Shown here piece by piece: positions 3,996 to 23,575 of a stretch of DNA of 32,000 nt. Source of the DNA: Candidatus Methylomirabilis limnetica. Its GTDB lineage: Bacteria > Methylomirabilota > Methylomirabilia > Methylomirabilales > Methylomirabilaceae. The notes beneath the pieces are model-generated. The model saw nothing but the letters and a program-made list of their open reading frames with translations, searched no databases and was not told the DNA's origin. The number at the start of each line of letters is the position of its first letter. Positions within the stretch are counted from its first letter, which is position 1. The translations under genes and the position numbers were made by a program. The stretch covers positions 60,001-92,000 of the forward strand of contig NZ_NVQC01000028.1 of assembly GCF_003044035.1 (NCBI RefSeq), read 5' to 3'.

Positions 3996-4070
3996 AGGGT
4001 TTAGGGTCTAGGGTAAAGGGTTTAGTTCAGCCTCTGCGTCCTGTACCCTAGACCCTAAACCCTATACCCT
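3996..4070. repeat. Inverted heptamer-repeat hairpin, AGGGTNN x4 / NNACCCT x4, with a 20-bp perfect stem
   Basis: Left arm 3996-4023: AGGGTTT AGGGTCT AGGGTAA AGGGTTT. Right arm 4043-4070: GTACCCT AGACCCT AAACCCT ATACCCT. Bases 3996-4015 are the exact reverse complement of 4044-4063. Confidence 0.85.
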
Positions 4071-4081
4071 GGAGTTTGGGG

Positions 4082-6907
4082 ATGAATTATAAAGAAACGC
4101 TGAACCTGCCCAAGACCGCCTTTCCGATGAAGGCGGATCTCCCTGTGCTCGAGCCGTCCATCCTAAAGCGGTGGGAAGTCTTGGATCTCTATGGTCGGCT
4201 CCGAGAGGTCCGAGCTGATCGGCAGGCTTGGATCCTCCACGATGGCCCCCCCTACGCAAATGGCCACATTCATATCGGCCATGCACTCAATAAGATATTG
4301 AAGGACATCGTCGTCAAGTCGAAGTCGATGTTCGGCTACGACACTGCCTTCGTCCCAGGATGGGATTGCCACGGGCTCCCGATCGAACACCAGGTCGATA
4401 AAGACCTGGGTAGTAGGAAAGCGGAGGTGTCGCTGGTCGAGAAGCGGCAGCTCTGTCGGGAGTACGCCGCCAGGTTCATCGATATTCAGCGGGAAGAGTT
4501 CAGGCGTCTCGGAGTGCTCGGCAACTGGTCAGACCCCTATCTCACCATGGATTACAAGTATGAGGCGACGATTGTCCGCGAGTTGGGGAGGTTGTTCGGC
4601 GCGGGGGTCGTCTACAAGGGGAAAAAGCCGGTTCACTGGTGCGCCTCTTGCCGGACCGCCTTGGCTGAGGCCGAGGTCGAATACGGCGATCATGCCTCTC
4701 CGTCCATCTACGTCAAGTTTCCCCTCGACCCGGGCGCCGCGGAGCGTCTGCCGGTACTGCAGGGCGCACGATCGTTCGTCGTGATCTGGACCACGACACC
4801 ATGGACGCTGCCGGCGAATCTGGCTATCGCCGTGCATCCGGATGCATCCTACGCGATCGTCGAAACGTCCGGTGAGTTCTTCATCATCGCCAAAGATCGG
4901 CTACAAGAGACGCTTGCAGCCGCAGGAGTAACAGAGAGCCGGGTCGTCGAGGAGATGCCTGGCCGTGCGCTGGAAGGGCTTATGGCCAGACACCCCTGGA
5001 TTGACCGGGGCTCGAAGGTCGTGCTGGCCGATTACGTCACCATGGATCAGGGCACCGGGTGCGTACACACGGCTCCGGGGCACGGGGTAGAGGATTACGA
5101 GACCGGCATGAAGAACGGCCTCGACATCTATAACCCCGTAGACGCTGCCGGGAGATTCGTCGCGGACCTGCCGCTTGTCGGAGGCCTGAGCGTATGGGCG
5201 GCCAACAGCACGATCGTTGCAGAGCTTCAGCGCCGAGGTCTCCTGCTATCGGAGGCGAAACTCTCGCACTCCTATCCTCATTGCTGGCGGTGCAAGAAAC
5301 CAACGATCTTCCGGGCGACGGAGCAGTGGTTCGTCTCCATGGACGCCGCGGTCCTGCCTGACGAGGGGGGCGGGCAGACCGGCCTCCGCGCCAAGGCCCT
5401 GGCGGAGATCAAGCAGGTCCAATGGATCCCCTCCTGGGGCGAGGAGAGAATCAGCAATATGGTCGCTTACCGCTCCGACTGGTGCATCTCGCGACAACGA
5501 GTCTGGGGGGTCCCGATCGTCGCCTTCTACTGCACCCATTGCGGCCACATCCTGGCGGACCAGCGACTCGCAGAGCACGTCGCGACCATGATCGAACGCG
5601 GGGGAGCTGACATCTGGTACACGGCTGCGGCAGCGGACCTGCTTCCGCCCGGGACCGCCTGTCCCAACTGTGAGAGGGCCGACTTCGAAAAGGAACGCGA
5701 CATCCTGGATGTCTGGTTCGATTCCGGTGTGAGCCACGCGGCCGTCCTTGAGGTCCGGCCCGACCAACGATGGCCCGCCGACATGTACCTCGAAGGGAGC
5801 GATCAGCATCGGGGGTGGTTCCATAGCTCGCTGCTCACCGCGGTCGGAACCCGGGGACGCGCACCATATCGTGCGGTTTTGACCCACGGCTTCGTGGTGG
5901 ATGGTGCGGGGAAGAAGATGTCCAAGTCCCTCGGCAACGTCGTGGCCCCACAAGAGGTGATTGAACGGTATGGCGCCGAGATTCTTCGCCTCTGGGTGGC
6001 GGCCGAGGACTACCGCGACGATATCCGGATCTCTGAGGAGATCTTAAAGCGGCTGGCTGAAGGATACCGACGAATCCGGAATACCTGTCGCTATCTGCTC
6101 GGCAACCTGTCCGACTTCCAGCCTGCTCACGATGCGCTGCCGCTCAACGAACTCGATGAGATCGATCGGTTCATCCTGCACCGGCTAGGGCGGCTCACCG
6201 AACGAATACGCCGGGCCTACGAGACCTGCGAGTTTCACCTCCTCTACCATAGCCTGCATAACTTCTGCGCAGTGGACCTGTCGGCTTTTTACCTGGATGT
6301 CCTGAAGGATCGGGTCTATACCTCCGCCCCCCGCTCCCGCGCCCGGCGCGCGGCCCAAACCTCGATGTATCAGATCCTTGACGCGCTCGTCAGACTCATG
6401 GCCCCGGTCCTCTCCTTCACCGCCGATGAGGTCTGGCAGGCGATGCCTAAGCAGGGCGGCGAGATGGAGAGCGTGCACCTTGCCGAATTCCCGCCCATCC
6501 GATCCAGTCTTCTGGACGAAGCCCTTGAAGCCCACTGGGAAGACTTGCTGTCAGTTCGGGATGATGTGCTGAAAGCCCTCGAAGCCGCTCGCAAAGCCAA
6601 GCTCATCGGGACATCACTGGAGGCACGCGTTGACCTCCTGGTAGAGCCCACCTTACTGCCAGTCCTCACTCAGTACGAAGCCGATCTGCCGACGCTGTTC
6701 ATCGTCTCGGCCGTGAGCGTAGGGAGCCTGGCAGAAACAGAGGCGGCCGGAAAAAGGGTTGAGGTGCGAGTAGGGCGAGCAGAGGGACAGAAGTGCGCCC
6801 GCTGCTGGACCTACAGCGAAAGCGTGGGCCGATCCATCCCTTATCCGGATGTCTGCGGCCGCTGCGCCGGCGTCCTGGAAGAAATAGGGTATGGGGACAG
6901 GGTATAG
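4082..6907 (+). CDS. ileS: Isoleucyl-tRNA synthetase
   Basis: Class I HIGH motif (NGHIHIGHALNK), KMSKS motif (GKKMSKSLGN), and a C-terminal zinc-finger Cys pair (CARCW...CGRC). ATG 4082 sits 7 nt after GGAG at 4071-4074. The ORF-track start is TTG 4076. Confidence 0.95.
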   Translation: MNYKETLNLPKTAFPMKADLPVLEPSILKRWEVLDLYGRLREVRADRQAWILHDGPPYANGHIHIGHALNKILKDIVVKSKSMFGYDTAFVPGWDCHGLPIEHQVDKDLGSRKAEVSLVEKRQLCREYAARFIDIQREEFRRLGVLGNWSDPYLTMDYKYEATIVRELGRLFGAGVVYKGKKPVHWCASCRTALAEAEVEYGDHASPSIYVKFPLDPGAAERLPVLQGARSFVVIWTTTPWTLPANLAIAVHPDASYAIVETSGEFFIIAKDRLQETLAAAGVTESRVVEEMPGRALEGLMARHPWIDRGSKVVLADYVTMDQGTGCVHTAPGHGVEDYETGMKNGLDIYNPVDAAGRFVADLPLVGGLSVWAANSTIVAELQRRGLLLSEAKLSHSYPHCWRCKKPTIFRATEQWFVSMDAAVLPDEGGGQTGLRAKALAEIKQVQWIPSWGEERISNMVAYRSDWCISRQRVWGVPIVAFYCTHCGHILADQRLAEHVATMIERGGADIWYTAAAADLLPPGTACPNCERADFEKERDILDVWFDSGVSHAAVLEVRPDQRWPADMYLEGSDQHRGWFHSSLLTAVGTRGRAPYRAVLTHGFVVDGAGKKMSKSLGNVVAPQEVIERYGAEILRLWVAAEDYRDDIRISEEILKRLAEGYRRIRNTCRYLLGNLSDFQPAHDALPLNELDEIDRFILHRLGRLTERIRRAYETCEFHLLYHSLHNFCAVDLSAFYLDVLKDRVYTSAPRSRARRAAQTSMYQILDALVRLMAPVLSFTADEVWQAMPKQGGEMESVHLAEFPPIRSSLLDEALEAHWEDLLSVRDDVLKALEAARKAKLIGTSLEARVDLLVEPTLLPVLTQYEADLPTLFIVSAVSVGSLAETEAAGKRVEVRVGRAEGQKCARCWTYSESVGRSIPYPDVCGRCAGVLEEIGYGDRV

Positions 6908-6910
6908 GGT
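6884..6910 (+). repeat. Heptamer repeat (ATAGGGT family) covering the last codons and stop of ileS
   Basis: ATAGGGT ATGGGGA CAGGGT ATAGGGT. Same core as the 3996-4070 element. The ileS TAG stop (6905-6907) lies inside the last unit. Confidence 0.6.
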
Positions 6911-6928
6911 AAATGACCAAGGATTTAT

Positions 6929-6955
6929 GCACCTCGCACCCCCCACTCCGCATCC
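6929..6955 (+). repeat. GCACC-type heptamer repeat, copy 1
   Basis: GCACCTCGCACCCCCCACTCCGCATCC. It matches 8498-8524 at 23 of 27 positions in the same orientation. Confidence 0.6.
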
Positions 6956-6968
6956 TAAATCCTCCCAC

Positions 6969-6989
6969 CCCCCCTTTGCAAAAGGGGGG
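6969..6989. repeat. Palindromic element CCCCCCTTT-GCA-AAAGGGGGG
   Basis: 9-bp stem with a 3-nt loop in the ileS-lspA spacer. Same motif class as the three palindromes at 31276-31427. Confidence 0.7.
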
Positions 6990-7020
6990 CACGGGGGGAT
7001 TTCGCACCACGCGCTAATCC

Positions 7021-7509
7021 ATGCGGTTCTATGCTGTCGCTCTGACGGTCATCCTGCTCGATCAGGCTTCAAAGCTGTTGATCCAGGCCACGATGCCACT
7101 CGGCCACAGCATCCCCATCATCTCCGATCTCTTCGCGATCGTCCATGTCATGAACCCAGGCGCGGCATTCGGCCTCCTGGCCGATCAAGCTGCATGGGTT
7201 CGCAAACCTCTCTTCATTGGCGTCTCTCTCCTGGCCATCGGGTTCATCCTGTACCATCGCCATTGCAGGGTTGACGATCATCCGCTTACTATGCTCGGGT
7301 TGAGCCTGATCCTTGGGGGCGCTGTTGGCAACTTGGTGGATCGATTGAGAATCGGCATGGTCATCGACTTCATCGATGTTCATTACTATCAGTACCACTG
7401 GCCTGCATTCAATGTCGCGGACTCCGCCATCACCGTCGGCGTGTCGCTCATGATGCTCACGTTGATCCTTGGAGAACGTCGGGAGCGAGATCGGGGGCGG
7501 GCCTCATGA
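7021..7509 (+). CDS. lspA: Lipoprotein signal peptidase (signal peptidase II)
   Basis: LLDQASK, NPGAAFG, GGAVGNLVDR and FNVADSAITVG motifs with four hydrophobic segments. Classical ileS-lspA linkage. Confidence 0.9.
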   Translation: MRFYAVALTVILLDQASKLLIQATMPLGHSIPIISDLFAIVHVMNPGAAFGLLADQAAWVRKPLFIGVSLLAIGFILYHRHCRVDDHPLTMLGLSLILGGAVGNLVDRLRIGMVIDFIDVHYYQYHWPAFNVADSAITVGVSLMMLTLILGERRERDRGRAS

Positions 7510-8582
7510 GCGGCGATGAGATTCGCGAACTCATAGCTGACGGCTCGGCCACCGACCTGCGCCTGGACCGCTACCTCTCTACCGCGACAGGGCTCCCACG
7601 ATCACAGATCCAGCGCCTCATCAAAGCCGACCGGGTGCTGGTCGATGGTCGCCACCCAAAGGCGAGCGCCACGGCTCACCCGGGCCAGCACATCAGCCTC
7701 TCTATCCCTCCGCCACAGCCGTCCACCCTCACACCCGAACCGATTCCCCTCGACATCCTGTACGAAGATACTGACATTCTGGTCCTGAATAAGTCGGCTG
7801 GGCTTGTCGTGCACCCCGCCCCCGGGCATCAGACCGGGACGCTGGTCCACGCCATCCTGCATCACTGTCCGGATTTACCCGGGATCGGCGAGGAACGACG
7901 GCCAGGGATCGTTCACCGGCTCGACAAAGAGACCTCTGGGGTGATGGTCGTGGCTAAAACCGATACGGCCATGGCCTCGCTCGCCACACAATTTAAAGGA
8001 CGTCGAGTGAAGAAGACCTACATCGCGCTGGTGCATGGCGAGGTCAAGCAGCCGGAGGGGAAAATCGAGGCCGACATCGGCCGTCACGAACGGGATCGAA
8101 AGCGGATGGCGGTGTGCACACGCAAAGGTCGGGAGGCGGTGACCATCTACCGGGTGATGAAGCGCCTCAATGGCTCCACACTGCTACAGCTCCAGCCACA
8201 CACCGGCAGAACCCACCAGATCCGGGTCCACCTGTCCGCGATCGGACACCCGGTGGTGGGCGATAAGCTATATGGGGGACGAAGGGAAAGGAAATGGCGA
8301 ATGGAGAGTGGAGAGTGGAGAGTGGAGGCGGAGCGACACCTCCTGCATGCCTGGAAACTCGGTCTGTTCCACCCGAGGACTGATGAGTGGATGGAGTTTG
8401 AAGCCCCGCTGCCGCTGGACTTCACAAGCTGGCTTCACGCAGAACCATCGACGGGAACCACCCCGCTCGGATCCCCTCCCGCCAGCGGTTCTTCCGGGCA
8501 CCTCGCACCCCGCACTTCGCACCGTTCACGGTTTCTCCACCGTCACGATTCTGGTGGAGCCACACCGCAGGATCTTTCCTAG
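7506..8582 (+). CDS. rluD: 23S rRNA pseudouridine synthase, RluD subfamily
   Basis: S4-like N-terminus (LRLDRYL), catalytic HRLDKETSGVMVVAKT, and TGRTHQIRVH. The ATG overlaps the lspA stop as ATGA. The last ~45 codons read through a repeat and a hairpin, so the functional C-terminus is uncertain. Confidence 0.85.
   Translation: MSGDEIRELIADGSATDLRLDRYLSTATGLPRSQIQRLIKADRVLVDGRHPKASATAHPGQHISLSIPPPQPSTLTPEPIPLDILYEDTDILVLNKSAGLVVHPAPGHQTGTLVHAILHHCPDLPGIGEERRPGIVHRLDKETSGVMVVAKTDTAMASLATQFKGRRVKKTYIALVHGEVKQPEGKIEADIGRHERDRKRMAVCTRKGREAVTIYRVMKRLNGSTLLQLQPHTGRTHQIRVHLSAIGHPVVGDKLYGGRRERKWRMESGEWRVEAERHLLHAWKLGLFHPRTDEWMEFEAPLPLDFTSWLHAEPSTGTTPLGSPPASGSSGHLAPRTSHRSRFLHRHDSGGATPQDLS
8293..8334 (+). 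repeat. Six in-frame heptamers (AATGGCG AATGGAG AGTGGAG x3 GCGGAGC) inside rluD
   Basis: 42 nt with exact 7-nt periodicity, translated as WRMESGEWRVEAER in the variable loop between the YGG and LHAW motifs. Confidence 0.75.
8498..8524 (+). repeat. GCACC-type heptamer repeat, copy 2 (inside the rluD 3' extension)
   Basis: GCACCTCGCACCCCGCACTTCGCACCG, 23 of 27 identical to 6929-6955. Confidence 0.6.
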
Positions 8583-9095
8583 TGACAGGTCGAGTGCCAT
8601 CACGCGAAGGTCCGCACTCCAATAGCACTCGGGGTCCTTGCAAGGACAAGGCCTGACAACTAAGCCATTGATCGTCGGTTCTATAGGGGCGGAATGTTCA
8701 GTAAAAGCCCCAACCGCTGCCGCGTAGTCGGCGCGATTGGCGGCGCACCATAACTGCTAGTCCCCGTTCGAATCGATACAGGCTCAGCTAAAGAGACACC
8801 GCGATTCGAGCCAACGGCCAGTGACGTTCTCGGCCTTCCGACTGACTACAACATCCTTAGTCCATCGAGAGGCGAGACAATTTGCTCGCGGTTTGAAGGT
8901 TCACTACGAGCGGCGGGTTGTCACTTACTCACCTGCCAACCGCTGCAACATGGCGACTTTCCCCTATCAGGCAGAGAAGAACTCCGGCGGTGTAGCAGTT
9001 TTATTGGAGAGGTACCCCAACCTTCAGCTTGCTGAGGCGTTTCTACGACGATTTTATGAGATTGCGTGATCCTGAAGCTGCATCTACTGGAACAA

Positions 9096-9188
9096 CTAGG
9101 CCATGAACGAAAGTACCATAGCAACCGTCACGAAGAGCAACAAACCACCAGCCGCAATCCACAGCAATATTGTATCGCCACCATCCAT
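9096..9188 (-). CDS. Small hydrophobic peptide, 30 aa (MDGGDTILLWIAAGGLLLFVTVAMVLSFMA), downstream copy of a tandem pair
   Basis: Hand translation of the minus strand. ATG at 9188, SD AAGGGGGA (9194-9201) with a 5-nt spacer, TAG stop. One predicted TM helix. Paralogous to 9205-9294. Confidence 0.45.
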   Translation of the reverse strand: MDGGDTILLWIAAGGLLLFVTVAMVLSFMA

Positions 9189-9204
9189 TGAAGTCCCCCT
9201 TAGT

Positions 9205-9294
9205 TTAGATAAACGAAATCACCATAGCAACCGTCACGAAGGTCAACAAGCCACCAGCCGCAAGCCACAACAGTATCGTATCACCTCGATCCAC
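9205..9294 (-). CDS. Small hydrophobic peptide, 29 aa ((V/M)DRGDTILLWLAAGGLLTFVTVAMVISFI), upstream copy of a tandem pair
   Basis: GTG at 9294, SD AAAGGGGG (9300-9307) with a 5-nt spacer. The TAA stop lies 3 nt before the SD of the next copy. Differences between copies are mostly synonymous or conservative. Confidence 0.45.
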   Translation of the reverse strand: MDRGDTILLWLAAGGLLTFVTVAMVISFI

Positions 9295-9368
9295 TGAAGC
9301 CCCCTTTATTTTACTGGTTAGTGATTACCCCGGTCATTCCACAACATCCACCGCCAGATGTGTTTCGG

Positions 9369-9397
9369 ATTGTATCCTACAGAGGTCAACCTTGCAA
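9369..9397 (-). promoter_or_regulatory. Candidate sigma70-type promoter (TTGCAA-17 nt-TACAAT) driving the mini-ORF pair
   Basis: Minus-strand read: TTGCAA (9392-9397), 17-nt spacer, TACAAT (9369-9374). About 68 nt upstream of GTG 9294. Confidence 0.4.
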
Positions 9398-10074
9398 CTA
9401 TCTATGAAGAACCGGTCTCGTAACGAGTATAGCAACGACGGAGCCACCCTACCAGCGTAGTATAACATCCCGCAGTTCAGAAACCTAACGAAAGCTTTGC
9501 CGCATCGGCCCACACCATTCTTCCCGGAACCCGTAAGGACGGCAGCTCGCAACCCCGCTTTTTTTGCTGCCATGAGCCTTTGTTCCATGCAGATCAATCT
9601 TAGGTAGATCTTCTCTGTGTGCCTGATTGGAGCCGACGGCCAACGCCAACGTAGAAGTCGATATGTCCTTCGATTAAGAGCAGTCCGGAACTCTACTCTC
9701 TGACATGCAAACTTCGTGAAGAAAGTTAACTGAGGTAGAACCTATTGTCAAGACAAAAATGCAGTATCTGGACAGGGCGATGTGACGTCCCATCCACGCT
9801 CTCTCGTTCGCCTAACAAGGGCTCTCTGGCGTGGTTGACGAACGCCTCAAAGACCGCGCCAGGGAAGGGGGGTTCCTCGCACCTTTTGGGGTGGTTTACT
9901 GGCCCGAGCAGGCGCACCGGGAGCAATGGAAAGAAGGAATCCCCTGAGCACCGCTGACTAGAACTCCTCGGAATGGGCATCAGTGAGCCGGCGAGTATGC
10001 CAATGTCAATATAGGGATCGCTCGTACCACTCGCCGCAGAAAACGGGTACTATTTTAGAGTGGTTACTCACCCA

Positions 10075-10103
10075 TTGACACGATACCCGGAGAGAGTTAT
10101 ATC
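10075..10103 (+). promoter_or_regulatory. Candidate sigma70-type promoter (TTGACA-17 nt-TATATC) for the usp gene
   Basis: TTGACA at 10075-10080, 17-nt spacer, TATATC at 10098-10103. The implied transcription start is downstream of the ORF-track start at 10104, which supports ATG 10224. Confidence 0.4.
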
Positions 10104-10223
10104 TTGAACATGCCCCAAGATGCTCAGCGTAAGAGGCGCACCAGGGGTCGTCTGGACGGTCTCCACAATGTCAGCGTAGCGGATAGCAACATAACCCTGC
10201 TTGACGCGAGGAGGTATCGTGCC

Positions 10224-10694: not shown

Positions 10695-10721
10695 GGACTC
10701 TCACCGCTCACTTCGCTCGTC

Positions 10722-11096
10722 ATGGCGCGACGGTGGATGATGGACTGCGAATTGCTGACGCCGAAGATTGAGTCGCTGGACAAATCAGATATGGATACTC
10801 GTGGGGCGCAAGAGCCATTCGAGGAACCGGTGATCCTACCCACCGAGGATATCCTCGATCTGCACGCCTTCGCGCCCAAGGAGATCCCGTCGGTAGTCGA
10901 GGAGTACATCGAACAGTGCAGGGAGGCGAAGATGTCAGAAGTTCGGCTGATCTATGGGAAAGGGACGGGGACGCAGCGGGCGATTGTCCAGCGCCTGATG
11001 GCGAGCCACCCAGGCGTCATCTCCTTCACCGACGCCCCACCCGAGGCGGGGGGATGGGGAGCAACGATCGTCCGGTTGAGACCATCGGAAATCTAG
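10722..11096 (+). CDS. Smr-domain protein (stand-alone small MutS-related nuclease domain)
   Basis: ILDLHAF...VEEYI...VRLIYGKGTGTQRAIV...GGWGATIV matches the Smr pattern LDLHG / IHGKGTG. The N-terminal ~45 aa show no recognisable motif. Confidence 0.75.
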   Translation: MARRWMMDCELLTPKIESLDKSDMDTRGAQEPFEEPVILPTEDILDLHAFAPKEIPSVVEEYIEQCREAKMSEVRLIYGKGTGTQRAIVQRLMASHPGVISFTDAPPEAGGWGATIVRLRPSEI

Positions 11097-12424: not shown

Positions 12425-13345
12425 TCAGAACCAGCCTCGGTACTTGAAATATACTCCCATCGCCACTCCAACGGTAATCATCGCCAGTAACGCATACATC
12501 CAGCCAAGTGAGCTTTCGAGCCATGGCAGGTTGGGAAAATTCATTCCAAAAAAGCCGGTAATGAGCAGGAAAGGAATGGCCACGGTGGCCCAGAAGGTCA
12601 GGCTCTTCATGATTTCATTGGTGCGATTGGCGGTGGCGGAAAGGTGGACGTCAAGCACGCCGGTGAGGATGTCGCGATAGGTTTCAGCAAAATCGAGAGC
12701 GCGGACGATGTGGTCGTAGATGTTACGGAAATATGGCTGTTGCGAACGGAACCATGGTTCGGCGCGGTAGAGAAGATGATTGATCGCCTCGCGCCCAGCC
12801 AGGGCCACGCGGCGAAAATCAATCAACGCGCGGCGGAGCGCAAAGATATCTGCCAGCAGCCGGGGCGTGGGATTATCGAGGATCTGCTCCTCGATTTGCT
12901 CGATGCGGTCCTCCACGGTGTCGAGCACGGGCAGATACTGGTCGGCCATGAAGTCGAGCATGTGCTGAAGCAGGCGGCCCGGATGGGCCATCGTGGGGTC
13001 GGAGCGAAATGTCGGAAGCACGGCCGCCACGGTGCGGCTGGGCGTGGGGCCTTCGCGGACGCTCACCAAAAAATCTTTGCCGACAAAGAAATTGATCTCG
13101 CCAAACCAGCACTCCTGTTTCTCCGGGTTAAAGTGGATGGAGTTGAAAATAAGGAACAGGTGGCCATCATACTCTTCGAGCTTGGCGCGCTGGCGATAAT
13201 TACGGCAGTCCTCGATGGCCAACTCGTGCAGGCCAAGCTGAGCGGCCAGCTCGTCGAGCGCAGGGCCCTTGGGATCGTCCACGTGATACCAGCAAAAGCC
13301 ATTGCGCTCCCCGATCAGGCATGCGGCAGCAGCAGGGCCGATCAT
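12425..13345 (-). CDS. corA: CorA-family magnesium/cobalt transporter
   Basis: Signature GMN motif (FFGMNFPNLPW) between two C-terminal TM helices, with a long acidic cytoplasmic N-domain. Confidence 0.9.
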   Translation of the reverse strand: MIGPAAAACLIGERNGFCWYHVDDPKGPALDELAAQLGLHELAIEDCRNYRQRAKLEEYDGHLFLIFNSIHFNPEKQECWFGEINFFVGKDFLVSVREGPTPSRTVAAVLPTFRSDPTMAHPGRLLQHMLDFMADQYLPVLDTVEDRIEQIEEQILDNPTPRLLADIFALRRALIDFRRVALAGREAINHLLYRAEPWFRSQQPYFRNIYDHIVRALDFAETYRDILTGVLDVHLSATANRTNEIMKSLTFWATVAIPFLLITGFFGMNFPNLPWLESSLGWMYALLAMITVGVAMGVYFKYRGWF

Positions 13346-14990: not shown

Positions 14991-15369
14991 GCTGCCACGC
15001 GACCGGTTGCACAACCACGCGAGAGCGAGTGGTGGGGCTCGGCTCGATCCGCATCGCAGGCCCGGCATGCTGTAGTGAGTCGTGCGCGATTTGAGCCGGC
15101 CACCAGCCCGCTCCGCGCACCACCGCCTGCTATTGCCGAGCACCCTTCCCAAATATGAGATCGTTGATTGTGGCGCATTCTAGGGGGTCACTGTTTTATA
15201 CATCTTGCGCAAAAATCTGCTTAGGGACGTTTTCTACAGCCTCAATCGTGATAGGGAAGAGCCTCGCGGCCCCGCTCCTCCCACACCACCTTACATACGG
15301 ATCACGTATGTGTGTCACTGGTCACAAGGAAATGTACCACAAATGGTCATGAAAAGTGTATCAGAGTTG

Positions 15370-16120
15370 AAATAGGTACGGGCACTATTTCGTAAGACCC
15401 TTTCTTGGTCTTCCTCTATGCGAAACGCTTATAACTCGCCCCAGTTTCCTGCTCAATTCCCCGATGAACCCATCCCTCCCCAGTGGTCGCCCTGTCATAG
15501 TGTGCCTTCGAATCGTTTCCACGTCTGGGGCATTATCGTCCAAATCGATGTGTTCTCTCCATGACTCCATGGAAACGCCCACTGATTCCTTTATCTCAAT
15601 GACATCGACCATCTCACTCGTTCCACCGATGTGAGCGGCCGCACTGGACCATTTCCATTGCCAAGGCCTGTTGACCATCCTGGCCCGCACCGGATTCCTC
15701 TCAACATATCGCATTGCCGCCATAAGATACGGCTCATCAAGCAGACAGGAATAAAAGCGTCCCTGCCACAAGTGCCCGGAGGCCTTTCTCTCTTTGTTGA
15801 AATACTGAGCATACCGCATATGGGCCACGCTGAACACTTTAGCCAACGATGCCTCTTCCTGCGGTTGGACAATGAAATGAACGTGATTGTCCATTAAGCA
15901 ATAGGCCCATATCGACAGGTGAAATTTGCGGCTGTATTCATTAACCCAGGATAAGTATCGAGAACGATCTTCGTCGTTACGAAAGACCGCCTGGCGATAA
16001 TTCCCTCTTTGCGTAATATGGTAAGGGTGGCCGGGTGCAACGATTCGAGCAATCCGTGGCATGCAAGATCATTAGAGCAAACACCCTAAATTGTCAAATA
16101 AATAGTGTCTGTCCCTATTT
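15370..16120 (-). mobile_element. RAYT/IS200-like unit: Y1 transposase gene bounded by inverted 21-nt hairpin motifs
   Basis: AAATAGGTACGGGCACTATTT (15370-15390) matches the reverse complement of AAATAGTGTCTGTCCCTATTT (16100-16120) at 18 of 21 positions. Each copy is itself AAATAG-N9-CTATTT. The surrounding DNA is AT-richer. Confidence 0.55.
15385..16062 (-). CDS. REP-associated tyrosine transposase (Y1/HUH, IS200-like)
   Basis: N-terminus PYHITQRGN, HUH motif in DNHVHFIV, catalytic Tyr region AMRYVERNPVRA. Confidence 0.85.
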   Translation of the reverse strand: MPRIARIVAPGHPYHITQRGNYRQAVFRNDEDRSRYLSWVNEYSRKFHLSIWAYCLMDNHVHFIVQPQEEASLAKVFSVAHMRYAQYFNKERKASGHLWQGRFYSCLLDEPYLMAAMRYVERNPVRARMVNRPWQWKWSSAAAHIGGTSEMVDVIEIKESVGVSMESWREHIDLDDNAPDVETIRRHTMTGRPLGRDGFIGELSRKLGRVISVSHRGRPRKGLTK

Positions 16121-16160
16121 AATCTGCTAGGATGAGCGAAACAGGAAGCGAGGAGGCTTT

Positions 16161-17360: not shown

Positions 17361-17467
17361 GCAGCGATTCGGCTTTCAGCAATCAGCGGTCAGCGCCTTC
17401 GCTTCCAGAATTGTGGATCGCCTTTCACGGCCCATCATTTTGCTGAAAGCTGATGGTTGATCGCGCA
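17361..17467. repeat. Inverted heptamer-repeat element (NTCAGCN x3 / NNGCTGA x3) between convergent thiI and cytochrome c
   Basis: Left arm: TTCAGCA ATCAGCG GTCAGCG (17375-17395). Right arm: TTGCTGA AAGCTGA TGGTTGA (17440-17460). GCTTTCAGCAA pairs with TTGCTGAAAGC. It shares the 13-mer GCTGAAAGCTGAT with 21863-21875. Confidence 0.7.
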
Positions 17468-17478
17468 AGGGCTGTACT

Positions 17479-17996: not shown

Positions 17997-18025
17997 TTGA
18001 CTTTTCATGTGATTCCGGCTAGGTT
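17997..18025 (+). promoter_or_regulatory. Possible promoter for ilvE (TTGACT-17 nt-TAGGTT)
   Basis: TTGACT at 17997-18002, 17-nt spacer, TAGGTT at 18020-18025. The -10 element is weak. Confidence 0.25.
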
Positions 18026-18072
18026 GAGCCCGATATTTGGGTATTGTTTGGTGATGCGAAGAGAGGGGTACA

Positions 18073-18984: not shown

Positions 18985-19000
18985 GAACAGGGTGGAGGGT

Positions 19001-19969: not shown

Positions 19970-19979
19970 GGAACTCCTC

Positions 19980-20066
19980 TCATCGCCCGATCCCCATGTA
20001 TTCGAACCCCATGGCCTTCATCTTGATCCAGAGCTGATCCTTCGGCTTCTTAAGCGCCTGCGCAAT
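19980..20066 (-). pseudogene. Possible 3' remnant of a UDP-glucose 6-dehydrogenase gene (28 codons plus stop)
   Basis: Hand translation: [28 protein letters not shown]. The GF-Y--IGR ending is, from memory, the usual Ugd C-terminus. The resemblance stops exactly at the left end of the MITE-like element (20067). It sits directly upstream of the UDP-glucuronate decarboxylase gene. Confidence 0.35.
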
Positions 20067-20249
20067 CGTAACTCTCAGGTGTTCAGGCTGTAGGCTGAAG
20101 GCTGTTAGTCTCTGCGCATGGACTGAACCAAGGGCCCAGATACCTTTTCGGTCTCCATCATTTTCGCGTCACATTCAGAAAACGCCTGGCTCATCTGTGC
20201 GCGTTCCAACAGTCTAAAAGACTACAGCCTATCTACCTGAGTAGTTACG
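20067..20249 (+). mobile_element. MITE-like non-coding element, copy A (183 bp)
   Basis: Terminal inverted repeats CGTAACTCTCAGG ... CCTGAGTAGTTACG. Roughly 85-90% identical by hand alignment to 24830-25005. The left end carries CAGGCTG TAGGCTG AAGGCTG heptamers. No credible ORF. Confidence 0.7.
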
Positions 20250-20250
20250 C

Positions 20251-20358
20251 AGGATCTTCAATAACATACTCCTGCCAATCGAGCCCTACCCTCGCGAACG
20301 CGATCTGGACGAGCTACCGAACTGAATAGGTCTCGCCTGTGGCGATGACGTAATCATC
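20251..20358 (-). pseudogene. gmd: Internal fragment of GDP-mannose 4,6-dehydratase (36 codons, in-frame TAG)
   Basis: Hand translation: DDYVIATGETYSVR*LVQIAFARVGLDWQEYVIEDP. This matches the Gmd segment D(D/F)VIATGE.HSVREFVE.AF..VGLDW...V.IDP. It is truncated at the manC stop on one side and 1 nt from MITE copy A on the other. Confidence 0.6.
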
Positions 20359-21427
20359 GAGGCCCACCCGCAAGCTTCCTGACCTCCTGTGCCCGCTCCT
20401 TGGGACAGACCAGTACACCGTCCTTGGACGCTACCACAATCATCTCCGACAGCCCGACGGTTGCCACCCGCGGCCCGGTCGAGACAATGACCGACTGCGT
20501 CGTATCCAGGAGATGCACCTCACCCACGATCACGTTGCCGTCATCGTCTACGGGCAGCACTCGAGCCAACGCATCCCAGGTTCCCAGATCATCCCAGGCG
20601 AAATCGGCCCTGACCATCGCAACCCCCTCCCCCATCCGCTCCAACACGCCGTAATCTACCGACTGCTTCTTGAACGCGCTGTACTCCCGTTCCAGCGCCT
20701 CCTGTACCCCCCACGCCTCGCGGATGCGACAGAGGCCCGCCCACACCTCCGGCATATGCCTGGCAAGCAGACTTTGAATGGCGACATTTCGCCAGAGGAA
20801 GATGCCGCTGTTCCAGTAGTGATACCCGTCTGTTGCCAAACGCTCGGCCGTCTGCCGATCCGGTTTCTCCAGAAATCGACGGACGCGAAAAGCGCCGGGA
20901 GGCGAGGCCAGCGGCTCGCCGACCTCCAGATATCCGTACCCGGTCTCTGGCCGGGCAGGGGGGATTCCGAACATCACGACCCAGTCCGAGTATGAGGCGA
21001 GCAGCTCGGTCGCCCGGCGCACTCCTGCCGCAAACGCCTCGCCATCAGGAACGTAGTGATCAGCCGGCAAAGCAATCATGACCGCTTCAGGGTCAAGTCG
21101 CTCGAGGTGCAGCGAAGCGATCCCAATGGCTGCTGCGGTATCCATACCCTGCGGCTCGAGCAGGAGATTAGCTACGGGGAGCTCCGGGAGCTGCTCTCGG
21201 ACGAGGTCGCCATGCTTTTGCTCAACGACCACGACAATCTGGACCCAGGGCAGCAGGAGCCGCACCCGCCGGACCGTCGCCTGCAGGAGCGATTCGCTCC
21301 CGATCAAGCGAAGGAAGGCCTTGGGTTGTGCTTCCGTGCTGAGCGGCCAGAAGCGCTCGCCCTTCCCGCCGGCAAGCACCACCGCGAAGACATGGGGGTT
21401 ACTGCTCGTCGCTCCGCCCGTAGTCAT
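20354..21427 (-). CDS. manC: Mannose-1-phosphate guanylyltransferase (nucleotidyltransferase domain only)
   Basis: VVLAGGKGERFWPLS signature and a GMP-transferase-like body. The start is taken as ATG 21427, overlapping the upstream cupin gene by 29 nt. The ORF-track start is 21481. Confidence 0.85.
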   Translation of the reverse strand: MTTGGATSSNPHVFAVVLAGGKGERFWPLSTEAQPKAFLRLIGSESLLQATVRRVRLLLPWVQIVVVVEQKHGDLVREQLPELPVANLLLEPQGMDTAAAIGIASLHLERLDPEAVMIALPADHYVPDGEAFAAGVRRATELLASYSDWVVMFGIPPARPETGYGYLEVGEPLASPPGAFRVRRFLEKPDRQTAERLATDGYHYWNSGIFLWRNVAIQSLLARHMPEVWAGLCRIREAWGVQEALEREYSAFKKQSVDYGVLERMGEGVAMVRADFAWDDLGTWDALARVLPVDDDGNVIVGEVHLLDTTQSVIVSTGPRVATVGLSEMIVVASKDGVLVCPKERAQEVRKLAGGPR

Positions 21428-21758
21428 CCTGGAGTCGAACAATGTCATCCTCCCCGAGGTAGGCGCCGTTTTGAATTTCAATAATGGTGAGTAGATGTGG
21501 CCCGGGATTCTCGATCCGGTGATCTGTCCCTGCCGGCACGAACGTCGATTCCTGGGCGGAAATGACTAAGGCCTGGTTCCCGATTATCACCTTGGCCGTG
21601 CCGGCCACAACAACCCAGTGCTCGCTCCTGGAAGCGTGTCGCTGCAGACTCAGACGATGCCCGGGATTGACCTCAATCCGCTTGACCTTGTATCCCTCTC
21701 CCTCCCCAAGGACTGTCCAGCGTCCCCAGGGCCGCGTTGAGGTCAGTACTGTTTGCAT
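21399..21758 (-). CDS. Cupin-type mannose-6-phosphate isomerase domain protein (type II PMI C-terminal-like)
   Basis: RPWGRW, LSLQRHASRSEHWVVVAGTA and PAGTDHRIENPG are cupin metal-site motifs, as in the C-terminal domain of bifunctional ManC/AlgA. Confidence 0.8.
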   Translation of the reverse strand: MQTVLTSTRPWGRWTVLGEGEGYKVKRIEVNPGHRLSLQRHASRSEHWVVVAGTAKVIIGNQALVISAQESTFVPAGTDHRIENPGPHLLTIIEIQNGAYLGEDDIVRLQDDYGRSDEQ

Positions 21759-21790
21759 GTGATCCCTCGTCTGCTCCTTAGAAATAAGCG

Positions 21791-21880
21791 TTCAGCCATC
21801 AGCACTCAGCCGTTAGCTTCAGATAAAGCAGAGGGGTACATCAAAAGAACCGATAGCTGATCGCTGAAAGCTGATAGCTT
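21791..21880. repeat. Inverted heptamer-repeat element, same TCAGC/GCTGA family as 17361-17467
   Basis: Left arm: TTCAGCC ATCAGCA CTCAGCC GTTAGCT (21791-21818). Right arm: ATAGCTG ATCGCTG AAAGCTG ATAGCTT (21853-21880). Confidence 0.7.
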
Positions 21881-21933
21881 CCCCAGAGTTACATTTCCGT
21901 GGGCCGCAGTGCGGTAGTGCCTCTCATGGGGTG

Positions 21934-22956
21934 TTACTGAGATACGTGCGAGAGGTCCCCGTACGTCTTTTGGTAATACTCCCGATACTCCCCCGCTTTG
22001 ATGCGCGTCCACCAGGTCACGTGATCCTCATACCAGCCGACCGTTTCCTTGAGCCCCGTCTCAAAGGGAATGCGAGGTCTCCAGCCCAGCTTTCGCTCCA
22101 ACTTCGACATATCGAGGGCGTACCTTCGATCATGTCCGAGCCGGTCTTCGACGTGTACGATCAGAGAATCGGGCTTACCCAGGGTCCTCAGGATATGGCG
22201 AGCTACGTCAATGTTGGCCCGCTCGCATTTGCCGCCGATATTATAAATCTCACCATTATGCCCATTCCTCAAAATCAGCGCCAACGCCTCGCAGTGGTCC
22301 TGCACGTGCAGCCACTCGCGGACCTGGAGGCCGTCGCCGTAAAGCGGAAGCGCTTCACCGGCAATGGCATTGGTGATAAAGAGCGGAACCGCCTTCTCTG
22401 GAAACTGGTAGGGACCATAGTTGTTGGAGCTCCGGGTGATGATCGCCGGTAACCCGTAGGTACGAACGTAGGCCGCAACCAGAAGGTCTCCCGCCGCCTT
22501 GCTGGCGGCATAGGGGCTGTTTGGAGAGAGAGGGCTGTCTTCCCTAAAGTACCCTGAAGGCCCGAGCGAGCCATATACTTCATCAGTCGATACCTGCACC
22601 ATCCTTGGAACCCGATGCCGACGGCACGCATCCAGAATGACCTGCGTCCCAAGCGTATTGGTCTCCACGAATGCCCTCGCATCCTGGATACTTCGATCCA
22701 CGTGCGATTCGGCCGCGAAGTTCATCAGCGCATCGAACCGCTCCTTCAAGATGGCGTCTACCAACTCAACGTCGCAGATACTCCCCTTGATAAATCGGTA
22801 TCGAGGATCGCGCTCAACGTCGGCCAGATTCTCGAGGTTGCCGGCGTAGGTCAGCTTGTCGAGATTCACGACGCCGCAATCCGGCTCTGTCGCGAGCATG
22901 TGGCGAATGAAGTTCGACCCGATAAATCCGGCTCCACCGGTCACCACGATTCTCAT
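21934..22956 (-). CDS. rfbB: dTDP-glucose 4,6-dehydratase
   Basis: VTGGAGFIGSNF, STDEVYG and YAASKAAGD (YxxxK), with RfbB-like sequence along the full length. Confidence 0.93.
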   Translation of the reverse strand: MRIVVTGGAGFIGSNFIRHMLATEPDCGVVNLDKLTYAGNLENLADVERDPRYRFIKGSICDVELVDAILKERFDALMNFAAESHVDRSIQDARAFVETNTLGTQVILDACRRHRVPRMVQVSTDEVYGSLGPSGYFREDSPLSPNSPYAASKAAGDLLVAAYVRTYGLPAIITRSSNNYGPYQFPEKAVPLFITNAIAGEALPLYGDGLQVREWLHVQDHCEALALILRNGHNGEIYNIGGKCERANIDVARHILRTLGKPDSLIVHVEDRLGHDRRYALDMSKLERKLGWRPRIPFETGLKETVGWYEDHVTWWTRIKAGEYREYYQKTYGDLSHVSQ

Positions 22957-22967
22957 TGTTCAAACAC

Positions 22968-23066
22968 GTTTCGAGTTTCGGGTTTCGGGTTCCAAGACGG
23001 ACACGCATCTTCAGCCGTGGAACCCCGGCCTGGACTCGAAACTCGCAACTCGAAACTCGAAACTGG
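22968..23066. repeat. Inverted heptamer-repeat hairpin (GTTTCGR x3 / CTCGMAA x4) between rfbC-like and rfbB
   Basis: Left arm: GTTTCGA GTTTCGG GTTTCGG (22968-22988). Right arm: CTCGAAA CTCGCAA CTCGAAA CTCGAAA (23035-23062). Inner 7-bp stem: GGGTTCC (22987-22993) with GGAACCC (23019-23025). Confidence 0.8.
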
Positions 23067-23068
23067 CT

Positions 23069-23533
23069 TCATCCCAGCTTCACTGCCCAATCGTATGGGA
23101 TATCCGGACTGTCAGGGGGGATTCGAAACTCATCCGGCTCCTGGTAATTGTAGAGCTCGGTCGGGAAATTCATAATCGCCGACATCCGGTCGCCTACCGC
23201 CTTGTACCCATGGATCACCAGGGGCGGGATCTTGACCAACATCGGATTCTGCTCACCGATGAAAAACTCATTGAGCAAGCCTTTTGTGGGAGAGTTGTCG
23301 CGGGAATCGAACAGAACAACCTTGGACATTCCGAGGACCCCGACAAAGTGGTCGGTCTGTTTCTTATGATAGTGCCACCCCTTCACCACCCCGGGATAGG
23401 CGGCAGTGATGTAGGCCTGCCCAAATCGCTCGAACTCCTCCCAGTCGCTGCGCAGCATCTCTGTAAGGAAACCTCTCTCATCAGGAACCCGCCGTAGCTG
23501 TCTAGTTTTCACACCATCAATAAGCATCATCAC
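23069..23533 (-). CDS. rfbC: dTDP-4-dehydrorhamnose 3,5-epimerase-like cupin (short form)
   Basis: DERGFLTE, KGWHYHKKQTDHF (His of the catalytic dyad) and IPPLVIHGY match the RmlC pattern. At 154 aa it is shorter than classical RmlC. Confidence 0.75.
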   Translation of the reverse strand: MMMLIDGVKTRQLRRVPDERGFLTEMLRSDWEEFERFGQAYITAAYPGVVKGWHYHKKQTDHFVGVLGMSKVVLFDSRDNSPTKGLLNEFFIGEQNPMLVKIPPLVIHGYKAVGDRMSAIMNFPTELYNYQEPDEFRIPPDSPDIPYDWAVKLG

Positions 23534-23575
23534 CCCTCAACCTTGAACCTTGCACGTTGAACCTTGAACGTTGAA
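23534..23575. repeat. Direct tandem heptamers (CCCTCAA CCTTGAA CCTTGCA CGTTGAA CCTTGAA CGTTGAA), with no inverted partner
   Basis: Six consecutive 7-nt units fill the rfbA-rfbC spacer and abut the rfbC-like SD (GAGGGG on the minus strand). Confidence 0.8.

Follow-up and report, generated by a model that had tools for sequence, protein, structure and literature searches.

Degenerate heptanucleotide arrays at gene junctions of an NC10 bacterium

Genes and arrays of the window

The window, i.e. the whole 32-kb stretch of DNA that was analysed, contains ileS, lspA, rluD, a gene resembling REP-associated tyrosine transposases (RAYT-like), thiI, a minus-strand cytochrome c gene and a minus-strand operon of rml-type genes; the genes flanking its heptamer arrays are ordinary housekeeping genes. 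Its IleS is 94% identical to that of Candidatus Methylomirabilis sp. bin48, and the relatives of RmlB and IleS belong to Candidatus Methylomirabilis/NC10. Judged from these proteins, the host is a methane-oxidising Candidatus Methylomirabilis (NC10) and a cyanobacterial origin is excluded, in line with a first-pass annotation that had seen no sign of a cyanobacterium.

The same annotation had described at least nine loci of three to six consecutive 7-nt units. In the 32-kb window, TRF returned 12 period-7 rows at or adjoining these loci, including 3996-4025, 4045-4070, 6884-6911, 8302-8327, 8498-8523 and 9246-9270 as well as 20085-20105, 21852-21879, 22968-22991, 23034-23064 and 23539-23576. 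A self-shift scan (match +1, mismatch -2, arrays called at a score of at least 9) detected nine strong arrays at period 7 and zero or one at each other period from 3 to 14; shuffled versions of the window held a mean of 0.2 and a maximum of one array (20 shuffles), which bears out the expected enrichment. Four of the named arrays (17376-17395, 21792-21810, 24849-24861 and 6899-6911) have only two to three units and scores of 6-7; taken singly, they are near chance level, and they share core families with the strong arrays. Since independent assemblies from at least four samples carry the identical array sequence, the arrays are not an artefact: they are real and strictly 7-periodic, as had been observed.

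In related loci totalling 2 Mb, 83 intergenic arrays were found at period 7 versus 2-16 at periods 5, 6 and 8-11; 83 of 145 arrays in this set fall in intergenic DNA, which constitutes 12% of the bases. The two most variable unit positions take 0.89 of the mismatches compared with 0.78 +/- 0.02 in simulations that went through the same detector as the real arrays (48 arrays, 2 Mb). The proposed pattern of four to five fixed and two to three variable positions thus exceeds expectation, but only modestly. Within the window, seven of the nine strong arrays are intergenic, though intergenic DNA makes up only 16% of it (P = 7e-5); among the 17 intergenic gaps that measure 30 nt or more, eight contain an array. 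Both figures support the claimed location at gene boundaries. Most arrays reside inside operons or 3' of stop codons rather than at promoters; both divergent promoter gaps of the window are free of arrays.

Core families

The families of the window are AGGGTNN, GCACNNC, TCAGCNN, GTTCAAS and TTTCGRG. AGGGT, GCAC and TCAGC each occupy at least two loci within the window and are found again in other NC10 contigs, at loci that are not orthologous, and CGCACNNCGCAC is nearly restricted to NC10-type loci. The cores form a few lineage-specific families, and the earlier notion that they are locus-specific does not hold. Arrays of this architecture, with inverted arms among them, are frequent in a subset of the compared loci (some Geobacteraceae, Nitrospirota and others) and missing from most of the remainder (49 of 85 loci lack any array, 12 have at least four). 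Reverse-complement cores occur in 21 of 70 neighbouring array pairs of the 2-Mb set.

The arrays could be DNA operator-like sites, with a separate DNA-binding protein reading each core family in 7-bp register; a parallel is the plasmid omega repressor, each dimer of which binds one heptad of an array, whether direct or inverted. The recurrence of a few lineage-specific cores at many loci, core positions less variable than expected, the occurrence of both orientations and of inverted pairs, and presence or absence by lineage are all compatible with such sites, and regulator binding was suggested for intergenic paired tandem repeats by Aklujkar et al. (PMC2700814). However, several proteins would be needed for the five or more unrelated cores in 32 kb, the arrays are placed mostly in operons or after stops and spare the two divergent promoter gaps, they extend into coding sequence, and a module can be absent from a 99% identical strain; operator sites are distinctly unlikely. 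A single phase-reading ligand for all arrays, as raised by the first-pass annotation, seems not favoured either, given the different cores and the presence of both orientations.

The ileS, lspA and rluD loci

3963-3991, plus strand: promoter-like TTGACA-17 nt-TATGAA, putative, read from the sequence
3996-4025, plus strand: AGGGTNN array of four units, 5' arm of the ileS leader hairpin (TRF, scan, inverted repeat, fold); also a G3N4 x4 motif
4045-4070, plus strand: ACCCTNN array of four units, 3' arm of the ileS hairpin (TRF, scan, fold)
6884-6911, plus strand: AGGGT-type array holding the ileS stop codon (TAG, 6905-6907) (TRF, sequence)
6929-6955, plus strand: degenerate GCACNNC array upstream of lspA, 92% identical to 8498-8521
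8293-8334, plus strand: ARTGGAG array of six units (42 nt) inside rluD, in frame (TRF, scan)
8498-8524, plus strand: GCACNNC array of about four units, located where the rluD ORF encodes a non-conserved C-terminal tail (TRF, scan)

The promoter-like site, which has a TG two bases 5' of its -10 hexamer and lies directly 5' of the first heptamer unit, was missed by a consensus scanner because position 6 of the -10 hexamer is A. The related locus L006 keeps both hexamers and a TGC (CTTGACAGG...GCTGCTATCAA) while neighbouring bases differ. The arms of the ileS leader form an inverted repeat (93%) with a predicted RNA fold of -49 kcal/mol; the 3' arm is followed 5 nt later by a GGAG and 11 nt later by the ATG of ileS (4082). 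The hairpin persists in L006, where a double change replaces one A-U pair by G-C, and compensatory evidence for RNA-level selection appears limited to this one pair.

Both 3996-4025 and 6884-6911 contain, on the sense strand, four G3 runs with 3-4-nt loops, and the other families lack G runs. The G-rich AGGGTNN arrays might be G-quadruplex elements, for which Xanthomonas GGGAATC and Nostoc GGGGAYT provide the precedent (PMC4692102), but GCAC, TCAGC, GTTCAA and TTTCG cannot form quadruplexes, leaving a single family, and at ileS the G-rich arm has a perfect C-rich partner within the stable hairpin. Quadruplexes are thus barely plausible as an explanation.

The array at the ileS stop codon comprises about four units in the window and six in each of L005 and L006; among the orthologues, the IleS C-terminus shifts along with the unit number. 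The junction upstream of lspA contains 4 + 3 clean TCGCACC units in L006. In rluD, the in-frame array codes for a variable loop (KWRMESGEWRVEAE) that aligns with a non-conserved loop in L007 and Geobacter RluD, and RluD homology stops near residue 306-310 of 358.

The thiI junction and the repeated element

17361-17395, plus strand: NTCAGCN arm beginning 1 nt 3' of the thiI stop codon (scan score 7, fold)
17440-17467, plus strand: NNGCTGA arm ending 11 nt before the stop of the minus-strand cytochrome c gene (fold)
20085-20104, plus strand: three AGGCTGN units (GCTGA family) within copy 1 of a repeated element, inside its left end (TRF, scan)
24849-24862, plus strand: two AGGCTGN units, copy 2 of the repeated element (scan)

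The junction of thiI and the cytochrome c gene is convergent. The repeated element of about 160-210 nt, copy 2 of which has one AGGCTGN unit less than copy 1, is separate from the hairpin modules and behaves like a MITE. The RAYT-like (Y1) gene at 15385-16062 (NCBIfam, 75.3 bits, below the cutoff of 80) has a 26-nt inverted repeat on either side, AAATAG..CTATTT (15365-15390 and 16100-16125), and no heptamer arrays flank it in the window.

The rml region and its 112-nt module

21791-21822, minus strand: TCAGCNN arm between the rmlB-like and cupin/manC genes of a minus-strand operon (scan, fold)
21852-21879, minus strand: GCTGANN arm of four units, pairing with 21791-21822 (TRF, scan, fold)
22957-23068, minus strand: 112-nt hairpin module between the rmlC-like and rmlB-like genes (TRF, fold, inverted repeat), made up of a GTTTCGR arm (22968-22991), a palindromic spacer and a CTCGMAA arm (23034-23064)
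23534-23576, minus strand: GTTCAAS array (minus-strand reading) of 5-6 units (TRF, scan)

The GTTCAAS array takes up all the sequence that separates the stop codon of rmlA from the ribosome-binding site of rmlC, and its final unit (GTTGAGG) is at the same time this ribosome-binding site. Orthologous arrays have 4-7 units in L086-L089 and L095, and L165, which is 98.2-99.0% identical to the window, has exactly one extra 7-nt unit, GGTGAGG. The arm at 21791-21822 is present in L165 and absent from L085 and L086.

The 112-nt module is found in L085, L088, L089 and L166 and is missing in L086, L087, L095 and also in L165, where the flanks are 98-99% identical; in view of this close strain, it is dispensable. 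In L088 and L089 it is 97.3% identical, the flanking genes only 86-89%; the identity peak covers about 250 nt and reaches into rmlC. Among the compared loci and viral contigs, the spacer was seen only at its orthologous junction. Filled and empty alleles show no target-site duplication and differ in adjacent bases, too. Modules of the same family align in their heptamer arms only, their spacers being unrelated. Within the compared loci and viral contigs, the hairpin modules do not match the definition of a MITE, given the single-junction spacer and the missing duplication.

Nevertheless, the hairpin modules could be small non-autonomous mobile elements (MITE- or REPIN-like) with heptamer terminal inverted repeats, mobilised by a RAYT-like enzyme. 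The discrete presence or absence of the 112-nt module, its conservation above that of its flanks, the RAYT-like gene within the window and the heptamer units at the end of a true multi-copy element point in this direction; moreover, Geobacter IS elements lie at fixed distances from paired sites (PMC2700814). Yet apart from the unrelated spacers, the confinement of the 112-nt module's spacer to one junction and the absent duplication, the identity peak runs into rmlC as expected of a recombination tract, the RAYT-like gene has its own, heptamer-free inverted repeat, and direct-only arrays would be left unaccounted for. Mobile elements of this type are highly doubtful.

Predicted stem-loops

As claimed in the first pass, an arm is followed by its reverse complement at four loci: 3996-4070 (z = -4.95 for the fold), 17361-17467 (z = -1.5 to -1.7), 21791-21880 (z = -2.2) and 22968-23066 (z = -2.9). 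Rfam 15 gave no matches at gathering score in the window. None of the arrays coincides with a predicted terminator-like site, and no hairpin is followed by a U-tract, the sequences 3' of the stems being GGAGTTTGGGG, GTGTTTGAACA and similar; intrinsic transcription terminators were rejected on these grounds. In predicted folds, the stems are not consistently more stable on the sense than on the antisense strand. The rmlC-rmlB hairpin has no covarying pairs, and its three substitutions break pairs.

Array dynamics

Orthologous arrays vary in unit number and order between species. Among contigs 99.7-100% identical to the window, no array change was found, and changes appear only at about 1-3% divergence; phase-variable contingency loci were rejected since unit number is constant at this close range. 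Unit-number polymorphism among close relatives exists in the form of the one extra unit at 98-99% identity, and this unit also upholds the idea of a shared generating process.

Arrays and hairpins could also be functionless by-products of 7-nt-biased mutation, tolerated where harmless. A close strain does without the module, one hairpin lacks covariation, there is no strand bias, and arrays populate all kinds of non-coding space as well as variable protein loops and tails. However, species whose IleS and RmlB proteins are each 81% identical still share array position and core, a distance at which neutral sequence would be expected to be scrambled; inverted partners are far above chance, and specific cores recur. 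Functionless by-products are unlikely.

Comparison with known repeats

STRR (short tandemly repeated repetitive) heptanucleotides were reportedly described in heterocystous cyanobacteria by Mazel et al. in 1990. As cited second-hand in PMC4692102, they comprise three heptanucleotides in Calothrix PCC 7601. Like STRRs, the NC10 arrays are tandem 7-nt units in excess, with several families per genome that are dispersed (over the window and NC10 contigs) and mainly non-coding. Unlike STRRs, they occur in NC10 rather than in a heterocystous cyanobacterium, a taxonomic and not a mechanistic distinction; they are short, degenerate arrays of three to six units, and many are paired with their reverse complement, resulting in predicted hairpins that exactly fill operon junctions.

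According to the accounts of Mrazek, Guo & Shah (2007) in PMC4679880 and PMC4692102, heptanucleotides are over-represented among long simple repeats of prokaryotes; in many bacteria they are the commonest ones, and polymerase slippage has been proposed as the cause (PMC4679880, PMC4692102). As far as these accounts go, the survey resembles the present findings in the prevalence of period 7 over 5, 6 and 8 or more, the intergenic location, the sporadic phylogeny and the proposed slippage, whereas it counted near-perfect repeats and included neither inverted-arm modules nor recurring cores nor NC10. In Geobacter metallireducens, paired tandem hepta- and octanucleotide sites on opposite strands between genes are described along with a (GGACCGG)4 family, and an 'unidentified global regulator' was proposed for the paired sites (PMC2700814). 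With 3-5 units of 7-8 nt, opposite-strand pairs, variable spacers and a placement within operons (e.g. proBA) at tens per genome, they are similar to the NC10 arrays, and Geobacteraceae loci L045, L048 and L024 share the paired architecture; their cores differ, and the authors took them for regulator-binding sites and reported nothing on evolutionary dynamics. Inverted GGGAATC arrays of Xanthomonas, GGGGAYT repeats of Nostoc (PMC4692102) and TAACTGA repeats of Beggiatoaceae (PMC4679880) are likewise genome-specific heptamers near start or stop codons, some in inverted pairs, and array length at the same junction varies among related species. These genomes have one dominant core each, compared with several in the NC10 window, and TAACTGA arrays are oriented and lie upstream of start codons, whereas NC10 arrays occur in both orientations.

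Because heptamer excess (PMC4679880, PMC4692102), paired arrays in Geobacter (PMC2700814) and inverted arrays in Xanthomonas (PMC4692102) have been published, this is a known kind of bacterial repeat, for which NC10 is a new phylum; the first-pass annotation had known of no such description.

Like REP/BIME/REPIN elements of gamma-proteobacteria (PMC2817692), the hairpin modules are intergenic, measure some 75-110 nt, follow stop codons or separate cistrons and are polymorphic among strains, and their genome has a RAYT-like gene. They differ in the internal 7-nt period of their arms, and they do not belong to the REP/REPIN class: the copies have no full-length palindrome consensus, and the RAYT-like gene is flanked by another repeat. 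By analogy, they would nevertheless most plausibly work like REP/BIME/REPIN.

Proposed mechanism

The preferred explanation, with about an even chance of being right, is that the arrays are STRR-type heptanucleotide families, resized by slippage and moved by recombination, whose inverted pairs probably form REP/BIME-like RNA stem-loops. A few lineage-specific 7-nt families would be distributed as short arrays of three to six units over many intergenic spacers. Strand slippage by exactly one 7-nt unit per step would create and resize the arrays and keep them periodic, as supported by the single-unit difference of near-identical L165, the single-unit difference between the paralogous element copies and the changes in unit number and order among species. 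Slippage alone does not account for the about tenfold preference of 7 nt over 5 or 8, for the same few cores at unlinked loci or for the all-or-none presence between related genomes. Whole array-plus-spacer modules may be gained, lost and passed across lineages via homologous recombination, as suggested by the 112-nt module, absent from L165 yet far more similar in L088/L089 than its flanks.

An array beside its reverse complement would let the operon transcript fold into a long stem-loop filling the space from a stop codon to the next ribosome-binding site, a reading supported by the stable predicted folds and the frequent reverse-complement neighbours and, at ileS, by a hairpin that follows a conserved promoter-like site and keeps a pair through a double change. 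Similar to REP/BIME in E. coli, the stem-loops may block exonucleases; the one in the ileS leader would cap its mRNA at the 5' end, and others would uncouple translation and decay of the adjoining cistrons. Direct-only arrays would be unstructured spacers, the units of which may be co-opted as stop codons, Shine-Dalgarno sequences or protein tails, as array units supply the stop codon of ileS and the Shine-Dalgarno sequence of rmlC.

Heptamer arrays and gene junctions

Tandem Repeats Finder confirmed that the heptamer arrays are real, reporting period-7 arrays at or next to every position at which the first-pass annotation had described such repeats. In a self-shift scan (match +1, mismatch -2, an array being called at a score of at least 9), the window yielded nine arrays of period 7, whereas the remaining periods between 3 and 14 gave 0-1 apiece and shuffled sequence gave 0.2 on average; these controls rule out chance or composition as the source of the arrays. 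An assembly artefact is also ruled out, because the sequence is identical in independent assemblies of several samples. Four loci (6899-6911, 17376-17395, 21792-21810 and 24849-24861) comprise only 2-3 units each and are individually below significance; their cores are those of the strong arrays. Although intergenic sequence makes up only 16% of the window, it holds seven of the nine strong arrays (P = 7e-5); of the 17 such gaps that measure 30 nt or more, 8 have an array. The proposed inverted arms were recovered as well, an array being paired with its reverse complement at four loci. No known RNA family, tRNA or tmRNA was found in the window.

The division of the units into fixed and variable positions stands in a reduced form. 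In 48 arrays from 2 Mb, 89% of the mismatches fall in two positions, compared with 78% in simulations run through the same detector (p < 2e-4); the effect is real and significant but small, and largely due to the low number of mismatches (about four per array) and to detection bias. The two most variable positions were adjacent no more often than in the simulations. Higher-order duplication, of 14 or 21 nt, could be an alternative origin of the pattern.

The genes of the window are ordinary (mreD, PBP2, rodA, ileS, lspA, rluD, Usp, Smr, CorA, thiI and cytochrome c), and the minus strand carries an operon, rmlA-rmlC-rmlB-cupin-manC. The closest IleS, 94% identical, is that of a Candidatus Methylomirabilis MAG, and those that follow come from NC10 as well; the host is therefore an NC10 bacterium, and the early impression that it is not a cyanobacterium was correct.

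The strongest of the four hairpins is found in the ileS leader (3996-4070); its stem is perfect over 20 bp and the fold reaches -49 kcal/mol (z = -4.95). It starts 4 nt past promoter-like hexamers (TTGACA-17-TATGAA, with a TG two bases before the -10) and ends 5 nt upstream of the ileS GGAG. The hexamers are kept in the relative L006; since a consensus promoter scanner did not call this site, owing to the A at the last base of the -10, the promoter is a putative one. At the other end of the gene, the ileS stop codon lies inside an AGGGT array. Between rmlA and rmlC, a GTTCAAS array starts 4 nt past the rmlA stop codon, and its last unit is the Shine-Dalgarno sequence of rmlC; the rmlC-rmlB hairpin leaves only 2 nt from the stop codon and 11 nt to the start codon. 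The convergent junction of thiI and cytochrome c is filled by a hairpin. Within rluD, six in-frame ARTGGAG units (42 nt) encode a loop without conservation in other RluD proteins, and a GCAC array lies in the C-terminal tail, past the end of homology. A strong non-heptamer hairpin between ileS and lspA (6957-7000, AAATCCTCCCACCCCCCCTTTGCAAAAGGGGGGCACGGGGGGATTT) is kept in L005, missing from L006, and could be a terminator or attenuator with a weak U-tract only.

Core families

The cores had been described as specific to each locus, which proved incorrect: they form families that are shared between loci in the window and with other NC10 contigs. AGGGT arrays stand at both ends of ileS; the GCAC arrays before lspA and in the rluD tail are identical at 22 of 24 nt; TCAGC/GCTGA is shared by two hairpins and the ends of a repeated element. 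At non-orthologous places in NC10, AGGGTNNAGGGT was found in five contigs (L086, L090, L091, L095 and L105) and CGCACNNCGCAC in L006, L088/L089, L091 (two loci) and L105; outside NC10, the latter was found in only one locus. Across all taxa, 196 arrays contain 126 different cores. A universal core is absent, the sets being lineage-specific only; single-linkage clustering of all cores percolated into one cluster and was uninformative.

Recurring cores would fit arrays that serve as protein-binding heptad operators, for which the omega-repressor heptads are a precedent. Five unrelated cores, positions within operons and dispensability are difficult to reconcile with this explanation. A 'global regulator' has been considered for the paired repeat sites of Geobacter (PMC2700814). 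A G-quadruplex reading could at most hold for arrays of the AGGGT family.

Occurrence in other genomes

A wider survey covered 2.0 Mb of loci around ileS and rmlB homologues, 12% of the bases being intergenic.

Arrays by period in the 2.0-Mb survey
Period 5: 2 intergenic, 12 coding
Period 6: 4 intergenic, 70 coding
Period 7: 83 intergenic, 62 coding
Period 8: 14 intergenic, 9 coding
Period 9: 16 intergenic, 70 coding
Period 10: 6 intergenic, 7 coding
Period 11: 5 intergenic, 13 coding

The phenomenon is much wider than this genome. Neighbouring arrays have reverse-complement cores in 21 of 70 pairs, where chance would give about 1% by a rough estimate rather than a computed control. Examples from Geobacteraceae and other 'Deltaproteobacteria' are AGTTTTG/AAAACTC, AGTGATG/ATCACTT and GACTGGT x16 / ACCAGTC, and several inverted pairs also occur in Nitrospirota. 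Between loci, the trait is all-or-none: among the 85 loci of at least 12 kb, 49 are without an array and 12 carry at least four, the variance being 5.9 for a mean of 1.4.

Composite modules, consisting of an AGTTTTG-type arm, an internal AGAYGTG array and a complementary arm, lie just downstream of rluD in two different Geobacterales genomes (L024 15818-15999; L048 10059-10152 and 10988-11144); some core combinations are therefore common to different genera.

Turnover of arrays and modules

The ileS leader hairpin and the 3' AGGGT and GCAC arrays are kept in L005 and L006 (IleS 94% and 81% identical) with different unit numbers, and because those of the ileS 3' array differ, the C-terminus of IleS changes with it (GYGDRV, GYKDRV or GYRV). 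The rmlA-rmlC array is kept in five species with 4-7 units in varying order. In L007, from a more distant NC10 genome, the core at the ileS-lspA junction is a different one, ACGTKGA; two copies of a TTTTTGCGCGC...GCGCAAAAA palindrome (12775-12875) interrupt this array and look like another small element inserted into it.

At closer range, L165 (98.2-99.0% identical to the window) has exactly one additional 7-nt unit, GGTGAGG, which duplicates the Shine-Dalgarno unit, and two paralogous copies of the repeated element differ in length by one AGGCTGN unit. Contigs 99.7-100% identical to the window showed no array change, in a comparison in which exact-protein matches mostly represent the same clone and few diverged strains; the arrays are not hypermutable.

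Whole modules are also gained or lost. Besides the window (22957-23068, minus strand), L085, L088, L089 and L166 carry the 112-nt rmlC-rmlB module. It is missing from the 99% identical L165 and from L086, L087 and L095, whose rmlC and rmlB genes are separated by 3 nt; L091 has a different hairpin, GTGCGNN/GCACNNC, at this junction. Between the window and L088/L089, identity reaches 97.3% in the module, compared with 87% in rmlB and 86-89% in rmlC; the peak of identity, of ~250 nt, takes in the end of rmlC and looks like a recombination tract. Differences between filled and empty alleles extend to the neighbouring stop codon and to codon 2 of rmlB.

Such a presence/absence pattern, together with a RAYT-like gene in the window, would suit hairpin modules that move in the manner of MITEs or REPINs. 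Against such mobility, no target duplication was found between filled and empty alleles, the sole module copy found is orthologous, and the repeat flanking the RAYT-like gene differs from the heptamers, by which a link between this gene and the arrays is rejected; TAGGGAC was not enriched either. A single mobile sequence is rejected as well, since spacers of same-family modules are unrelated and the module spacer was found nowhere else in 178 loci or viral contigs.

Conservation of RNA structure is faintly indicated. In the ileS hairpin of L006, one pair has changed on both sides from A-U to G-C, one has become a wobble and two are mismatched; the rmlC-rmlB hairpin has no covarying pair, all three substitutions breaking pairs. 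Fold energies of sense and antisense strands for 23 inverted pairs showed mixed preference and were equal on average.

Nature and possible function of the arrays

Most likely, the arrays are dispersed heptanucleotide repeats of the STRR type, whose anatomy they match. The 7-nt indels point to in-register slippage as the process that would make the arrays and keep them periodic, and recombination would transfer whole modules; both steps are partly shown. Arrays that are pure junk would be dispensable, as observed; long-term retention and the excess of inverted partners make this a poor fit. The most plausible role of the modules is that of transcribed stem-loops comparable to REP/BIME elements, which in E. 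coli protect from exonucleases, cap 5' ends and separate cistrons; we infer the same effects here because the modules are located within operons and exactly fill stop-to-start spacers, one of them lying where the ileS mRNA is predicted to begin. Direct arrays may be spacers that lack structure, and may supply sequence from which protein tails, stop codons and ribosome-binding sites arise.

Three points are not accounted for by slippage: the length of 7 nt, the recurrence of a few cores and the all-or-none split between lineages. They leave room for a trans-acting driver. That the heptad hairpins of NC10, some Geobacteraceae and some Nitrospirota form one class with cyanobacterial STRRs, created or maintained by a dedicated, sporadically inherited driver, appears unlikely to us; such a driver may be a nuclease, transposase, polymerase accessory factor or heptad-reading protein. 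If it existed, it would account for units of exactly 7 nt, few cores per lineage and related genomes that either teem with arrays or lack them; this sharp split is usable in a search for the causal gene, and phylogenetic profiling could then identify it.

Cyanobacterial STRRs are already published, and the question of the bacterial preference for 7-nt repeats and of the role of STRR-like arrays reportedly goes back to Mazel et al. 1990. An excess of heptanucleotides among long simple repeats, with sporadic distribution, is described by Mrazek 2007, as related in PMC4679880 and PMC4692102. Further cases are TAACTGA arrays in Beggiatoaceae (PMC4679880), GGGAATC arrays in Xanthomonas, including inverted pairs and between-species length variation (PMC4692102), and paired tandem hepta- and octanucleotide sites between operon genes of Geobacter metallireducens (PMC2700814). 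The first-pass annotation, which knew of no description, had thus missed those in Xanthomonas and G. metallireducens; of its interpretation, 7-nt periodicity and junction placement hold, locus-specific cores do not. Since comparable repeats are published, the window arrays belong to a known kind. Compared with the published repeats, this locus adds (i) a new host phylum, NC10, no paper linking Methylomirabilis with such repeats having been found in the literature searched; (ii) an inverted-arm type of module that NC10 has in common with Geobacteraceae and Nitrospirota; and (iii) strain-level evidence for 7-nt steps and module turnover. The one-unit indel and the module presence/absence polymorphism between strains ~1% apart are handles for follow-up in an organism maintained by enrichment culture and repeatedly sequenced.

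Contig ends and neighbouring features

The L005 contig begins 3 nt upstream of the ileS ATG, and L165 and L166 begin within the GTTCAAS array. As related contigs start or stop exactly at heptamer arrays, these seem to break short-read assemblies, whose contig ends also fall at the nearby repeated element. Arrays also shift stop codons and protein C-termini, which is relevant to annotation.

The repeated element (~160-210 nt) has at least three copies, 84-94% identical (window 20091-20249 and 24848-25005; L001 3094-3184), and is bounded by inverted ends CGTAACT...AGTTACG, inside which lies a stem, AGGCTGTTAGTCT...AGACTACAGCCT. In other samples, short-read contigs (L174, L177 and L178) stop within the element, which may represent a MITE or a family of small-RNA genes. 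The RAYT-like gene (15385-16062, minus strand) encodes a 225-aa Y1 transposase-like protein, whose best NCBIfam model, at 75.3 bits for a cutoff of 80, is REP-associated tyrosine transposase. An inverted repeat of 26 nt with AAATAG...CTATTT hairpins lies on either side of the gene (15365-15390 and 16100-16125), as is usual for RAYT genes; this repeat is unrelated to the heptamers.

A 550-aa protein (25054-26706, minus strand) has the MutS ATPase/core region only, with best partial matches to MutS and MutS2; an Smr-domain protein of 124 aa is encoded separately at 10722-11096 (plus strand); presence or absence of canonical mismatch repair in the genome could bear on slippage rates. Downstream of rluD follows a 1.6-kb ORF-poor stretch of lower G+C (8583-10223, 51%), within which a 106-nt tandem duplication (9103-9313, 84% identical) carries on the minus strand of each copy what looks like a ribosome-binding site and a hydrophobic peptide of ~30 codons (MDGGDTILLWIAAGGLLLFVTVAMVLSF...).
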